Shown in pieces: positions 17,138 through 22,176 of a DNA stretch of 48,174 nt. Made by a program: the position numbers and the translations under genes. Position 1 is the stretch's first letter. Every line of letters begins with the position of its first letter. The notes under the pieces are model-generated. The model searched no databases. It saw only the letters and a program-made list of their open reading frames with translations, and was not told the origin of the DNA. The stretch is taken from IMG/VR virus record IMGVR_UViG_2711768016_000013; one strand, 5' to 3'. This stretch comes from a virus (lineage: Duplodnaviria > Heunggongvirae > Uroviricota > Caudoviricetes).

Positions 17138-17220
17138 TTTCTTACGTATAAACTGCTTCAATTTTGCTATGCTTCGCAAAGCTGTATCGCGAGGCGGATT
17201 GCAGACATGGACATCGTAAA

Positions 17221-17244
17221 AAAACCGCTTAATGCGGTTTTTTT
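17221..17244. terminator. Rho-independent terminator hairpin with A-run/T-run flanks (possibly bidirectional)
   Basis: AAAACCGC-TTAAT-GCGGTTTT followed by TTT. Confidence 0.6.
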
Positions 17245-17564
17245 ACGTCAGGAAAGCAGGGGAGAATGCTGCTAGTTGGGCAACTGGTCTTTCTGCTCCA
17301 AATTATAACAGAGACCAGTTATAGTTTCGGTGCTGTGTTTTTTTTACAATATTGTGATAACACATTGCTGGCGGGAGTTTTGATATTTCTTGGCAGGGGC
17401 TGATGATGCGTTATCCTGATGTCGTCAACTCATATAAAATGAGATGAGAGATCATTGCAGGGTGGTTTGTAATTCGCTGTTTAGCGGGACAATATGTTGT
17501 CTGATACAAGACACCCGACGCCTCAGATTACTATAATAAAGACGAAGCATCCTTTGTATTGACC

Positions 17565-17590
17565 AACCGCCTGTTTAGGCGGTTCTTTTT
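17565..17590 (+). terminator. Rho-independent terminator, candidate tR'-like site for Q antitermination
   Basis: AACCGCC-TGTTTA-GGCGGTT followed by CTTTTT; TATAAT at 17533-17538 just upstream. Confidence 0.5.
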
Positions 17591-18181
17591 GGGCTGGTTT
17601 ATTGTATGCCAAATGATTATTAAAAAGGTTGTGTTAATAACAAGATCCGAAATAATATGCCTGCATATTTTTATCTTGCTTATATTCTGCATATTGTGCA
17701 TAGCAGGCTCATCCCTGCAATCAAAACTGTATGATGAGTATTTTTTGTTTTCCTTTTTTCCAGTCATCTGATGATGACCTGCTTCTTTTTAATCCGGATC
17801 GACATCAGTTTTTTAAGATAATTCCTGCGAGTTATATGCATAAATGCCACAAACTCCGCATTTTATGTGGTTGGGAGTTGCCGGGCGCGCAGTGAGTTTG
17901 CTAAGAAAACTCCTGCATGGTGAATCCCCCTGTGCGGTGGGGTGATACCATTAACCTTTTCTGTCGCCGACAGGTATCACGAACATTTTGTTCACCGGGA
18001 GGCACCCGGCACCATGCACTTCAATAGATTCTCTCCACATTATGGATATTCTTTCAGAATATCCCACGCAGACTTTGTGTAAATGTTAACAAATGTGCGT
18101 TTTATTTGATCTGATTCGCTGTTTGAGCGTCCAAAACAACGGTATATATAATCCTTTACTATATGACATATGTGAGGAAAA

Positions 18182-18610
18182 ATGGGTTTTCGTAGCGCAT
18201 CAATTCTTACGTTGATTATTAGTGGGATTATTATCGGGTGCACTGATGCTGTATCGACAAATTATCATGACCGTACATCATATTACTCCGATAAAGCAAT
18301 AGAGACACAGTATGTGAGTTCATCTGAACGTACTTCTGATGTTAGTGAGGATATCCGTCTGTATGCCCATCAAATCAAGAGCGCCATCGAAAAACAGTTC
18401 GGGGATGCGAGTAAGTATTCAGGAAAAGAGTGTACACTGAGAATGCATATGGCCCCGAATGGCCTTCTACTGGAGGTTAAAAGAGAAAGTGGAGACCTCG
18501 ATTTATGTCGTGAAGCGATGAATGCGATAAAGAATGCTGATATACCTGCCCCCCCTTCGCCGGAAGTATATAAAGTATTTCAAAATGGGGTGCTGGATTT
18601 TAAACCCTGA
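18182..18610 (+). CDS. Lipoprotein with TolA C-terminal (domain III)-like domain
   Basis: Signal peptide and Cys; C-terminus ...CTLRMHMAPNGLLLEVK...PEVYKVFQNGVLDFKP closely resembles the TolA C-terminus as remembered; RBS GAGGAAAA. Confidence 0.65.
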   Translation: MGFRSASILTLIISGIIIGCTDAVSTNYHDRTSYYSDKAIETQYVSSSERTSDVSEDIRLYAHQIKSAIEKQFGDASKYSGKECTLRMHMAPNGLLLEVKRESGDLDLCREAMNAIKNADIPAPPSPEVYKVFQNGVLDFKP

Positions 18611-18760
18611 TATTTATTGTTTTGTAATAAACGGTTTCGGCTTAGGTTTGTTCTGACACAGCTACGGCACTGAGCTAAATTTAGCGGATAGTCAGCTCTG
18701 AGCCAGTGGCGGACGTAACAACTACTATTGCTGAGATTTTAATGGATTGAGGAGCAAGAA

Positions 18761-19156
18761 GTGGGATTAAAGAAAATCGTTATGTTGACTTTTTGGGTCG
18801 GTTTTGTTGCGGGATGCACACCTTTACACCCTTCAGATTGCCACAAAACTACTGCTACAGGTAGTTGCAGTTCAGGACGCTGGGATGATCAGGATGAATG
18901 GGGGGCGCAAGCGCGGGGAATCAGAGCTGCAATTAATGCCAAACTTGATGAGCCGCATAACTGGAAAGGGAAAAAATGCAGGTTGCATATGGAATTCTCT
19001 CAGGATGGCACGGCGTTAAAAATATCTACCAGTAACGGTGATAAAGCCTATTGCGAAGCGATAAAGTCCGCAGCTCATAAAGCCAAATTTCCGGCCTTCA
19101 ACAATCCGGAAGTCTACAGAGATTTTCAGAAATCTGGCTTTGACATGCGAGGTTAG
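18761..19156 (+). CDS. Paralogous lipoprotein with TolA-domain-III-like C-terminus
   Basis: GTG start with GGAG RBS; lipobox VAGC; C-terminal KCRLHMEF...AFNNPEVYRDFQKSGFD aligns with the upstream paralog. Confidence 0.6.
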   Translation: MGLKKIVMLTFWVGFVAGCTPLHPSDCHKTTATGSCSSGRWDDQDEWGAQARGIRAAINAKLDEPHNWKGKKCRLHMEFSQDGTALKISTSNGDKAYCEAIKSAAHKAKFPAFNNPEVYRDFQKSGFDMRG

Positions 19157-19407
19157 CTCTTCAATTACTATATCTCATTCATAGCAAACTGACAGATTTG
19201 ATGATGTTCTATATACGAAACCTGTGATGTCAAGTCTGAGCTAATACAAATAAACATAATATCAGAGAAATACATTTTATTAGCTCGCTACGGCGAGCTT
19301 TTTATATTGCATCGTCTCCAGCATATATATCAATTAAGGCTCTGATTGATGTGTCTGAAAGCCTACACATAATAACTATGCCATCCGTTCCGTGCGGAGG
19401 TGAGGCT

Positions 19408-19623
19408 ATGAAATCCATGGACAAAATTTCAACAGGCATTGCCTACGGCACCTCCGCAGGCAGTGCTGGCTACTGGTTTTTACAGTTGCTCGATAGAGTA
19501 ACTCCGTCACAGTGGGCTGCAATCGGTGTGCTGGGTAGTCTGGTATTTGGCCTGCTGACGTACCTGACAAACCTTTATTTCAAGATTAAAGAAGATAAGC
19601 GCAAGGCTGCGAGAGGTGAATAA
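19408..19623 (+). CDS. Pinholin, phage 21 S-like, with dual-start motif MKSM
   Basis: [29 protein letters not shown]... two TM segments, charged C-terminus; GGAGGTGAGG RBS. Confidence 0.85.
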
Positions 19624-20120
19624 TGCCTCCATCATTACGAAAAGTCGTTGCTGCTGCTATTGGTGGCGGAGCAATTGCTATAGCATCAGTGTTAATCACT
19701 GGCCCAAGTGGTAACGATGGTCTGGAAGGTGTCAGCTACATACCATACAAAGATATTGTTGGTGTATGGACTGTATGTCACGGGCATACAGGAAAAGACA
19801 TCATGCTCGGTAAAACGTATACCAAAGCAGAATGCAAAACACTCTTGAATAAAGACCTTGCCACTGTCGCCAGACAAATTAACCCGTACATCAAAGTCGA
19901 TATACCGGAAACAACGCGCGGCGCTCTTTACTCATTCGTTTACAACGTGGGTGCTGGCAATTTCAGAACATCGACGCTTCTTCGCAAAATAAACCAGGGC
20001 GATATCAAAGGCGCATGTGATCAGCTACGTCGCTGGACATATGCTGGCGGTAAGCAATGGAAAGGTCTCATGACTCGTCGTGAGATTGAGCGTGAAATCT
20101 GTTTGTGGGGTCAGCAATGA
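19623..20120 (+). CDS. SAR endolysin (lysozyme with N-terminal signal-anchor-release domain)
   Basis: Gly/Ala-rich N-terminal TM segment [18 protein letters not shown] followed by lysozyme-like domain; start overlaps holin stop. Confidence 0.88.
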
Positions 20121-20581
20121 ACAGAGTAACCGCGATTATCTCCGCTCTGGTTATCTGCATCATCGTCTGCCTGTCATGGGCTGTTAATCATTACCGTGAT
20201 AACGCCATTACCTACAAAGCCCAGCGCGACAAAAATGCCAGAGAACTGAAGCTGGCGAACGCGGCAATTACTGACATGCAGATGCGTCAGCGTGATGTTG
20301 CTGCGCTCGATGCAAAATACACGAAGGAGTTAGCTGATGCGAAAGCTGAAAATGATGCTCTGCGTGATGATGTTGCCGCTGGTCGTCGTCGGTTGCACAT
20401 CAAAGCAGTCTGTCAGTCAGTGCGTGAAGCCACCACCGCCTCCGGCGTGGATAATGCAGCCTCCCCCCGACTGGCAGACACCGCTGAACGGGATTATTTC
20501 ACCCTCCGGGAACGACTGGTAATGATGCAGGCCCAACTTGAAGGTGCTCAGCAATACATAACCGAGCAGTGTTTAAAGTAA
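20117..20581 (+). CDS. Rz i-spanin
   Basis: N-terminal TM then coiled-coil periplasmic domain; ATGA overlap with endolysin stop. Confidence 0.85.
20337..20522 (+). CDS. Rz1 o-spanin lipoprotein embedded in +1 frame of Rz
   Basis: Lipobox VVGC, proline-rich (PPPPP) mature part, fully inside Rz. Confidence 0.75.
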
Positions 20582-20718
20582 AATCTTAACTACAATATGA
20601 TTCATTTTGATGATTGTTTCATAAGGAACAGTGAAGTAAGATCTAAGAGGAGTTAAATTTTATACAGTATAATCATAATATTGCAGCAAGGTGGTTATAA
20701 TTGAAAGAATATTTAGAT

Positions 20719-22176
20719 ATGAATACATCTCATGTAAGAGTTGTTACTCATATGTGTGGGTTCCTGGTTTGGCTCTATAGTCTTTCAATGTTGCCACCAA
20801 TGGTTGTAGCATTGTTTTATAAAGAAAAAAGCCTGTTCGTTTTCTTTATAACTTTCGTTATATTTTTTTGCATTGGTGGCGGAGCGTGGTATACAACTAA
20901 GAAATCTGGCATTCAATTACGTACCCGTGATGGGTTTATTATAATTGTAATGTTTTGGATTTTGTTTTCTGTTATTAGTGCATTCCCTTTATGGATTGAC
21001 TCAGAACTTAATTTAACGTTCATTGATGCTCTGTTTGAAGGGGTTTCTGGAATAACAACAACAGGAGCAACTGTAATTGATGATGTTAGTTCATTACCTC
21101 GGGCATATTTGTACTATCGGTCACAGTTAAATTTTATAGGTGGTTTAGGAGTTATTGTTCTGGCGGTTGCAGTATTGCCATTATTGGGTATTGGTGGTGC
21201 AAAGCTTTATCAGTCAGAAATGCCGGGGCCATTTAAGGATGACAAACTCACTCCCCGCCTGGCCGATACGTCACGGACACTGTGGATAACTTATTCTTTA
21301 TTAGGTATTGCTTGTATTGTCTGTTATAGACTTGCAGGAATGCCTTTGTTTGATGCTATTTGTCACGGGATTTCCACAGTTTCGCTTGGTGGTTTCTCAA
21401 CTCATAGCGAGAGTATCGGATATTTTAATAACTATTTGGTTGAGCTGGTGGCTGGTTCTTTTTCCCTGCTATCGGCTTTCAACTTCACTCTTTGGTATAT
21501 TGTTATTAGCAGAAAAACGATAAAACCTTTAATCAGAGATATTGAACTTCGTTTCTTTCTGTTAATAGCCTTAGGGGTGATCATTGTTACCTCTTTCCAG
21601 GTCTGGCATATAGGTATGTATGACTTGCATGGAAGTTTTATTCATTCGTTTTTTCTTGCCAGCTCCATGCTCACTGATAATGGTTTAGCTACGCAGGATT
21701 ATGCAAACTGGCCCACGCACACGATAGTGTTTTTGCTGTTGTCAAGTTTCTTTGGGGGATGTATAGGTTCAACCTGTGGTGGAATTAAGTCACTTCGATT
21801 TCTTATACTTTTCAAACAAAGCAAACACGAGATAAATCAGCTTTCTCATCCCAGAGCGTTGTTGAGTGTAAATGTAGGAGGGAAGATAGTTACAGATCGT
21901 GTAATGAGGTCTGTATGGAGTTTCTTTTTTCTTTATACTCTCTTCACGGTGTTTTTTATACTGGTGTTAAATGGTATGGGATATGATTTTCTTACATCAT
22001 TTGCAACAGTGGCTGCATGTATTAATAATATGGGATTAGGTTTTGGGGCTACTGCATCGTCATTCGGAGTGCTTAATGACATTGCAAAATATTTAATGTG
22101 CATAGCTATGATTCTTGGTCGCCTTGAAATTTATCCTGTTATTATATTGTTTTCAGGTTTTTTTTGGCGCTCCTAA
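20719..22176 (+). CDS. trkG: TrkG potassium uptake protein, 485 aa
   Basis: Multi-pass membrane protein; translation from MNTSHVRVVTHMCGF... matches TrkG as remembered; AT-rich. Confidence 0.9.
   Translation: MNTSHVRVVTHMCGFLVWLYSLSMLPPMVVALFYKEKSLFVFFITFVIFFCIGGGAWYTTKKSGIQLRTRDGFIIIVMFWILFSVISAFPLWIDSELNLTFIDALFEGVSGITTTGATVIDDVSSLPRAYLYYRSQLNFIGGLGVIVLAVAVLPLLGIGGAKLYQSEMPGPFKDDKLTPRLADTSRTLWITYSLLGIACIVCYRLAGMPLFDAICHGISTVSLGGFSTHSESIGYFNNYLVELVAGSFSLLSAFNFTLWYIVISRKTIKPLIRDIELRFFLLIALGVIIVTSFQVWHIGMYDLHGSFIHSFFLASSMLTDNGLATQDYANWPTHTIVFLLLSSFFGGCIGSTCGGIKSLRFLILFKQSKHEINQLSHPRALLSVNVGGKIVTDRVMRSVWSFFFLYTLFTVFFILVLNGMGYDFLTSFATVAACINNMGLGFGATASSFGVLNDIAKYLMCIAMILGRLEIYPVIILFSGFFWRS

Follow-up and report, generated by a model that had tools for sequence, protein, structure and literature searches.

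Two predicted lipoproteins built on TolA domain III in the stx-equivalent slot of a lambdoid Escherichia coli prophage: a possible decoy for Tol-dependent colicins and filamentous phages

The stretch of DNA considered here, IMG/VR virus record IMGVR_UViG_2711768016_000013, comprises 48,174 nucleotides (nt) and is referred to in its full length as the window. It represents a complete lambdoid prophage of Escherichia coli, with the integrase at one end and the tail-fibre genes at the other. Between a Q-like late-gene antiterminator candidate and a P21-type holin lie two small open reading frames, ORF1 and ORF2, which encode predicted lipoproteins carrying the C-terminal domain (domain III) of TolA (Table 1). 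At this domain, group A colicins and filamentous phages dock in the periplasm. An earlier note, made from the letters of this DNA, had described them as tandem paralogous lipoproteins with TolA-like C-termini, located them between the Q region and the holin, in the slot where Stx phages carry toxin genes, and suggested that they are periplasmic decoys. Its coordinates and its C-terminal sequence of ORF1 proved exact, the location of the pair was confirmed, and its interpretation as a whole is partly supported. The similarity to TolA is already known in the form of automatic names ('TolA protein', 'TolA C-terminal domain-containing protein'); what is new is the architecture and the setting in which a known domain is found.

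ORF1 starts with ATG, 5 nt downstream of a GAGG ribosome-binding site. Its product consists of a signal peptide with the lipobox IIGC, a disordered linker (residues 21-54), and the TolA-III domain (residues 55-142). As read from the sequence, the N-terminus is MGFRSASILTLIISGIIIG-C20 followed by Thr and Asp (IIG-C20-T-D), and the C-terminus ends ...VYKVFQNGVLDFKP. The Pfam model PF06519 (TolA C-terminal) matches ORF1 with 82.6 bits (E 2.4e-23) against a gathering score of 25. Residues 55-142 align gap-free to residues 334-421 of E. coli TolA, through the last residue (E ~1e-27 to 1e-28; the solved structures matched are 1s62, 3qdp, 2x9a, and 1tol), and 52 of the 88 domain residues are identical (59%). 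The AlphaFold2 model has a predicted local distance difference test score (pLDDT) of ~90 in the domain, falling to <50 in the signal peptide and linker. In Foldseek it superposes on 2x9a_B, the TolA-III chain from the complex with IF1 g3p, with a root-mean-square deviation (rmsd) of 0.6 Å and a target template modelling score (TM-score) of 0.96.

ORF2 has the same general layout with a more diverged domain. The lipobox VAGC is followed by an N-terminal segment with a Cys-x8-Cys motif (residues 20-43) and by the TolA-III domain (residues 44-131); the N-terminus reads MGLKKIVMLTFWVGFVAG-C19, then Thr and Pro (VAG-C19-T-P). PF06519 scores 54.6 bits (E 1.3e-14; same gathering score), residues 50-129 align to TolA 340-419 in the solved structures (E 5e-9), and 27 of 88 domain residues are identical to E. 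coli TolA (31%). The AlphaFold2 model shows the same confidence profile (pLDDT ~90 over the domain, <50 over the signal peptide and linker) and superposes on 3qdp with an rmsd of 1.1 Å and a target TM-score of 0.91. Pairwise alignment and structure prediction, two of the checks proposed in the earlier note, thereby bear out the likeness to TolA-III for both proteins.

Both disulfide cysteines of the domain (C363 and C388) are retained in ORF1 and ORF2. Each protein also stops at the equivalent of the final residue of TolA, thus leaving the C-terminal β3 edge strand free. With scores above the gathering threshold, the α/β fold, and the disulfide pair, both belong to the PF06519 family. Neither is a bona fide TolA, as the membrane anchor and helical domain II are lacking and the genes are flanked by the Q-like gene and the holin instead of forming part of a tolQ-tolR-tolA-tolB-pal cluster. 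In the full-length TolA models NF007065 and TIGR02794 (362 and 387 positions), only the last ~80-100 positions are matched. Both proteins fail NF007065 (ORF1 107.8, ORF2 53.7, cutoff 213), and ORF1 passes TIGR02794 (75.6 against 59.45) through the C-terminal end of the model only. Instead of the anchor, a signal peptide with a lipobox can be read in each translation: a short basic segment, a hydrophobic stretch, the lipobox, the cysteine, and Thr at position +2. The lipobox is retained across the family. The residue after the lipidated cysteine governs Lol-dependent sorting to the outer membrane (the +2 rule). Since the +2 residue is Thr and not Asp, outer-membrane sorting is expected. By this pattern match (lipobox Cys, no Asp at +2), ORF1 and ORF2 are probable outer-membrane lipoproteins, their lipidation and sorting being predicted from the N-termini.

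In RefSeq, the Prokaryotic Genome Annotation Pipeline (PGAP) has labelled ORF1 as a pseudogene ('tolA, incomplete, missing N-terminus') and started ORF2 at the ATG at 18782. Both calls look like annotation artefacts arising from the full-length TolA model; the pseudogene call can be traced to ORF1 passing the TIGR02794 cutoff although its match is confined to the C-terminal end of the model. The GTG at 18761 is the preferred start of ORF2, because a GAGGAG ribosome-binding site precedes it and because the copies from plasmids, Enterobacter, and Serratia likewise have GTG or ATG at this point. Taken at face value, the PGAP label would mean that the locus is debris, a truncated tolA pseudogene next to a fragment. 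This is very improbable, given that ORF1 has an intact start codon (ATG) with a ribosome-binding site and that a canonical lipoprotein signal stands where TolA has its anchor. Moreover, ratios of nonsynonymous to synonymous substitution rates (dN/dS) are well below 1. For ORF1 compared with an 84%-identical allele they are 0.29 in the domain and 0.42 in the linker, and for ORF2 compared with the plasmid, Enterobacter, Serratia, and Citrobacter copies they are 0.06-0.11. The whole cassette is found at ≥99% identity in 771 of 5426 complete E. coli genomes, and both ORFs fall into one family of phage proteins, PHROG 5772, listed as 'unknown function'. These data argue that ORF1 and ORF2 are real genes under purifying selection and that ORF1, with its signal peptide intact, is an intact lipoprotein gene. 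Regardless of function, the annotation is thus corrected from a truncated tolA pseudogene in RefSeq to an apparently intact lipoprotein gene.

The debris explanation is further opposed by the lack of DNA-level kinship to the host gene. Sensitive blastn ('distant' mode) with ORF1 DNA gave no similarity to chromosomal tolA; matches were obtained in 897 of the 5426 genomes, and all those listed are the prophage gene. A recent capture of ORF1 from host tolA was rejected, as this sensitive search with the DNA of the ORF1 domain yielded no chromosomal tolA and the guanine-cytosine (GC) content is ~41-43%. Additionally, a TolA closer to ORF1 than that of E. coli was sought among 150 cluster representatives, where none exceeds ~55% identity.

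The surfaces by which TolA-III binds its ligands are known and can be compared position by position. Strand β3 (A415-K420) is the β-strand-addition site common to g3p-N1, ColN, and the TolB N-terminus, and binding there depends mostly on the backbone (PMC4339652). Colicin A binds the opposite edge (L375-P380), with the lysines K368, K379, and K396 engaged in cation-π contacts (PMC3365938). ORF1 keeps 11 of 16 residues in the helix 334-349, 7 of 10 in β3 (412-421, including LDFKP), and 2 of 3 colicin A lysines; ORF2 keeps 4 of 16, 2 of 10, and none of 3, respectively. The β3 end of ORF2 reads FDMRG, in which Asp418 is kept and the Arg at 420 is basic, the latter lying outside the identity count. 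Judged by these alignments, ORF1 closely mimics TolA-III of E. coli, with most positions of the g3p/ColN/TolB surface kept. A tyrosine of TolA reported to be important for the interaction with TolB, Y352 in Walburger's numbering as cited in PMC2707214, corresponds to Y353 in the present alignment and is replaced by Gly in ORF1 and by Asp in ORF2. This gives a hint, and no more, that TolB binding by the two proteins may be weakened.

The relationship between the two genes deviates in part from the earlier description as tandem paralogues. They do belong to one family and share 29% identity overall (25 of 88 in the domain). A recent tandem duplication was nevertheless rejected in view of these 25 of 88 identities and because each gene is found alone elsewhere; ORF1 and ORF2 appear to be separately mobile modules that were separately acquired. 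For instance, the 84%-identical ORF1 allele occurs alone in the Stx-phage-like late region of E. coli 2015C-3905 and MDP9-27 (L120 3839-4267 and L121 3839-4201). The order there is Q, methyltransferase, tRNA-Ile, tRNA-Arg (tRNA, transfer RNA), ORF1 variant, and a SASA/NanS-p-type esterase, so that the variant occupies the literal stx position. ORF2 relatives with ~88% nucleotide identity are carried on ~600 plasmids. On I-complex plasmids (IncI1/B/O/K/Z), the ORF2 homologue is a backbone gene lying 68 nt 3' of the relaxase gene nikB and before the convergent trbC (L003 5995-6426; L122 and L123 4995-5426), and on pO157 it lies near toxB (L004 5995-6426). The plasmid homologue is annotated as a 143-amino-acid (aa) form whose start is probably 12 codons too early. 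Furthermore, Enterobacter, Citrobacter, and Serratia possess lone chromosomal genes whose products are 78-89% identical to ORF2, with no phage genes nearby, and genera such as Klebsiella, Raoultella, and Kluyvera have relatives as well. In Serratia marcescens, the gene stands beside GmrSD-like (DUF262) and HEPN genes (L009 8001-10736), a pair typical of defence islands. The ORF2 family is hence not phage-specific, which qualifies the picture of a moron, an optional phage gene unit, drawn in the earlier note.

At least part of the cassette was matched in 1372 of the 5426 complete E. coli genomes. An exhaustive profile search returned 590 cluster representatives at E ≤ 0.001. Of the best 150, 96 are ≤170 aa long, and a lipobox was recognised in at least 62 of these 96. 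Named members are known in Serratia, Erwinia, Klebsiella, and Enterobacter, all with automatic TolA-type names. Lipoprotein-anchored TolA-III is, as far as these profiles and lipoboxes indicate, a large and uncharacterised class. A scan of IMG/VR yielded only near-identical copies from E. coli prophages (99-100%), a fold search against predicted viral structures gave no match, and neither protein matched the PADLOC library of defence proteins. No paper on these proteins was found by full-text searching, whose coverage leaves out most subscription journals, so earlier work may be missed. Leads from a table of accessory regions listing 'TolA protein, hypothetical protein' without comment, from a tail-fibre gene called TolA-like without basis, and from a paper on chromosomal tolA were false for ORF1 and ORF2.

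The N-terminal segment of mature ORF2 (TPLHPSDCHKTTATGSCSSGRWDDQDEW, residues 20-43) deserves separate attention. In comparison with the relatives named above, its dN/dS is 0.01-0.10, tighter than that of the domain, reflecting 2-4 nonsynonymous changes with synonymous sites near saturation. More distant members of the family again show Cys-x8-Cys at the same position, and AlphaFold gives no confident structure for the segment. Such extreme conservation, together with the strong divergence of ORF2 at the TolA ligand surfaces and the size and diversity of the class of short TolA-III lipoproteins, speaks for an unlikely alternative in which ORF1 and ORF2 would be envelope lipoproteins whose partner has nothing to do with Tol ligands. 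The TonB/TolA-type C-terminal domain would then be a generic β-strand-binding module, the Cys-loop segment of ORF2 would confer a specificity of its own, and mobile elements would carry the genes for a benefit, for example resistance to stress or serum. Why ORF1 should mimic TolA-III at precisely the known ligand surfaces is, however, hard to explain unless its ligand is Tol-related. There is no candidate for another partner, and a search for the ORF2 motif fused to other domains returned only fragments of its own family.

The surroundings of the pair show a variable accessory-gene slot that is equivalent to the stx slot. On its upstream side, DUF1367 and YbcO genes are followed by that of the DUF1133 protein, which reaches 26.1 bits with the Phage_antitermQ Pfam model (cutoff 26) and has no relative among solved structures. 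On its downstream side, the lysis cassette opens with the holin. Related prophages share the sequence through the Q-like gene until ~60 nt beyond its stop and diverge thereafter. The prophage of ATCC 8739 agrees with the window in its Q-like gene, in trkG, and in the gene types of its lysis cassette (holin, lysozyme, lysis protein); its slot holds tRNA-Thr, tRNA-Gly, and one hypothetical ORF in place of ORF1 and ORF2. Conversely, phage mEp460_ev081 carries an identical ORF1/ORF2 cassette behind a different Q gene. The pair is therefore present in some related phages and absent from others, as expected of a moron. The GC content of the region is ~40-46%, against ~50% in the adjacent genes of the replication region. 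The tRNAs in the sister prophage and the ORF1 variant in the stx position of the Stx-phage-like prophage agree with the earlier claim of an stx-equivalent slot. A second accessory gene of the late region, that of the potassium transporter TrkG, follows directly after Rz/Rz1 and precedes the terminase genes, as in the Rac prophage.

Table 1. Features of the ORF1/ORF2 locus (positions in the window). Lysis genes were called with Pfam PF04971, PF00959, PF03245, and PF06085 and from the RefSeq annotation of an identical prophage.
Feature	Position	Strand	Basis and remarks
ORF1, predicted TolA-III lipoprotein, 142 aa	18182..18610	+	ORF call, Pfam, AlphaFold2, alignment
ORF1, Cys20 codon	18239-18241		
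ORF1, TolA-III domain	18344-18607		
ORF2, predicted TolA-III lipoprotein, 131 aa	18761..19156	+	ORF call, Pfam, AlphaFold2, alignment
ORF2, Cys19 codon	18815-18817		
ORF2, N-terminal segment	18815-18889		
ORF2, TolA-III domain	18890-19153		
Q-like late-gene antiterminator candidate (DUF1133), 180 aa	16595..17137	+	Pfam DUF1133, 356 bits; upstream edge of slot
Promoter-like site AAGACA-18-TATAAT, candidate late promoter	17508-17537	+	Consensus scan
Terminator-like hairpin, within 30 nt after the promoter-like site	17565-17584	+	-14.3 kcal/mol, z -1.9
STnc100-family prophage small RNA (sRNA) homologue	17885..18071	+	Rfam RF02076, 86.6 bits, gathering score 47, E ~1e-18
Sigma-70-like promoter candidate TTGAGC-18-TATAAT, 10/12	18123..18152	+	Consensus scan; 30 nt 5' of ORF1
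Intrinsic-terminator-like hairpin AGCTCGC-TACG-GCGAGCT + T-run	19282..19305	+	Closes the two-gene unit before the holin
P21-type holin	19408-19623	+	Pfam; opens lysis cassette 19408..20581, downstream edge of slot
Lysozyme	19623-20120	+	Pfam
Rz	20105-20581	+	Pfam
Rz1, embedded in Rz	20337-20522	+	Pfam
trkG (potassium transporter)	20701-22176	+	

Several candidate transcription signals accompany the cassette. The STnc100-family sRNA homologue adjoins it directly upstream of ORF1. Because its 3' stem is AU-rich and lacks the terminator U-tract of the family, termination may be absent here. The sigma-70-like promoter candidate before ORF1 is missing upstream of the ORF1 variant in the other prophage, so it would be a feature of this junction and not of the gene module. 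The G+C-rich terminator-like hairpin before the holin has a folding energy of -13 kcal/mol (z -4.2), and none of 200 shuffled sequences was equally stable. Farther upstream, 3' of the Q-like gene, the consensus matches at 17508-17584 form a candidate late promoter with a short leader and terminator; an isrK-like match at 17171-17244 is weak and does not reach the threshold.

This arrangement bears on the main alternative to a decoy, itself considered unlikely, that ORF1 and ORF2 modulate the Tol-Pal system of the host. At the outer membrane they would bind to the N-terminus of TolB (or to Pal) and weaken Tol-Pal locally. In the phage, late transcription just before the lysis genes would reduce the coupling of outer membrane and cell wall, to the benefit of lysis, release, or vesiculation; on plasmids, the assembly of the transfer apparatus might be eased. 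The pair indeed lies on the late-operon strand directly 5' of the holin, endolysin, and Rz/Rz1 genes, the STnc100 homologue without a U-tract might permit read-through, and the plasmid copy stands behind nikB in the transfer region. In addition, TolB shares the β3 site with g3p and ColN, and blocking of this site gives a full tol phenotype (PMC4339652). Against such a role, a strong terminator separates the two-gene unit from the holin, and sister prophages with the same Q-like gene and the same type of lysis cassette do without ORF1 and ORF2, which are hence dispensable for lysis. The ORF2 family is also kept as a lone chromosomal gene far from lysis or transfer genes, and the tyrosine reported for the TolB interaction (Y352/Y353) is Gly or Asp. 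The text consulted from a conjugation screen on an I-complex plasmid contains no mention of this gene, which is weak evidence in the same direction.

The most likely function, held with a little less than even confidence, is that of a periplasmic decoy against Tol-dependent colicins and filamentous phages. The lipoproteins would sit at the inner face of the outer membrane, with TolA domain III as their sole folded part. Having no transmembrane anchor and no domain II, they could not couple to the TolQ-TolR motor, and a bound ligand would therefore not be energised. The domain is predicted to present the same exposed β-strand edge as TolA, to which g3p-N1, the translocation domains of colicins, and the TolB N-terminus bind. 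Incoming colicin translocation domains and phage g3p would thus be captured unproductively before reaching the real TolA, and the lysogen or plasmid host would gain tolerance of Tol-dependent colicins and of pilus-specific filamentous phages. ORF2 would be a diverged version, probably with a different or narrower partner.

The pili of I-complex plasmids are receptors of IF1-type filamentous phages. The g3p of IF1 has been solved in complex with TolA-III (2x9a). Soluble periplasmic TolA-III is said to render wild-type cells colicin-tolerant and leaky, as reportedly described by Levengood-Freyermuth et al. in J Bacteriol in 1993. In the mirror mechanism, periplasmic pIII-N1 sequesters TolA and brings about resistance to colicin A and a 4-log lower phage uptake (PMC10424213). 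The contexts in which the genes occur (variable slot, stx position, next to nikB, pO157, and beside GmrSD/HEPN genes in Serratia) fit a protective conversion gene. Homology, fold, architecture, position, distribution, and purifying selection were observed; lipidation and sorting, expression in the lysogen, binding, and protection are inferred. The decoy is a plausible proposal that agrees with these contexts.

Several points weigh against the decoy. ORF2 has lost most of the TolA side chains at the known ligand surfaces, and its conserved Cys-x8-Cys segment points to a specific partner that a decoy does not explain. The lone chromosomal genes of the ORF2 family are as compatible with envelope housekeeping as with defence, and a tblastn search with ORF2 found a homologue in only 1 of 50,697 deposited phage genomes. 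Affinities of TolA-III for its ligands are in the range of 1-40 µM (PMC4339652), so a decoy would need a high copy number. The promoter and terminator that would serve the cassette (18123-18152 and 19282-19305) are consensus matches only. Moreover, TolB too would be competed for by a decoy, with a leaky, tol-like phenotype as a possible and costly result.

A broader proposal, advanced more tentatively than the decoy itself, is that outer-membrane-anchored copies of the TolA receptor domain constitute a widespread and unrecognised class of defence. It would extend over prophages, I-complex plasmids, pO157, and some chromosomes, with members tuned to different invaders and sparing TolB. As periplasmic decoys, they would bring tolerance to Tol-dependent colicins and to filamentous phages attacking by way of the pili that the plasmids themselves encode. 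If the decoy is true, roughly one complete E. coli genome in seven has, in the form of the cassette, a factor for tolerance of group A colicins and filamentous phages. With genomes that hold only a part, chiefly the ORF2 gene of plasmids, the share would rise to about one in four. There would be consequences for strain competition in the gut, for the host range of colicin- or phage-based antimicrobials, and for phage-display hosts. Furthermore, a role would be found for a conserved, unnamed backbone gene of I-complex resistance plasmids. The strategy of exclusion would itself be new, as a copy of the receptor domain is parked at the entry gate, whereas known ones mask or remove receptors.

Among known systems, the nearest is domain III of E. 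coli TolA itself (~334-421; 1s62, 1tol, 2x9a, 3qdp/3qdr), with which ORF1 and ORF2 share the Pfam domain, the fold (rmsd 0.6-1.1 Å), the disulfide, and the C-terminal end. Unlike TolA, they have no anchor, no domain II, and no tolQRAB-pal operon; a lipoprotein signal stands instead, presumably directing them to the outer membrane, and no proton-motive force would be transmitted. Soluble periplasmic TolA-III or g3p-N1/pIII competes at the TolA-III interface and produces colicin tolerance and resistance to filamentous phages, and the proposed decoy would be the natural counterpart. Those agents were made in the laboratory or, as pIII, belong to the filamentous phage itself, whereas ORF1 and ORF2 are natural lipoproteins of a lambdoid prophage and of plasmids, with a predicted effect. 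Cor (phi80/N15), Llp (T5), and TraT (F) are small outer-membrane lipoproteins of mobile elements that have been proposed to exclude invaders. ORF1 and ORF2 would resemble them as small, putatively protective outer-membrane lipoproteins of mobile elements; there is no sequence relationship, and Cor, Llp, and TraT mask or inactivate a receptor (FhuA, OmpA), whereas ORF1 and ORF2 would copy a receptor domain. Lastly, the pair resembles the late-region morons of lambdoid phages (stx, bor, and lom) in its optional presence in a variable slot, its lower GC content, and its promoter- and terminator-like signals; the ORF1 variant even stands in the stx position. In contrast to those morons, the cargo of ORF1 and ORF2 is a host-derived receptor domain and not a toxin or adhesin.

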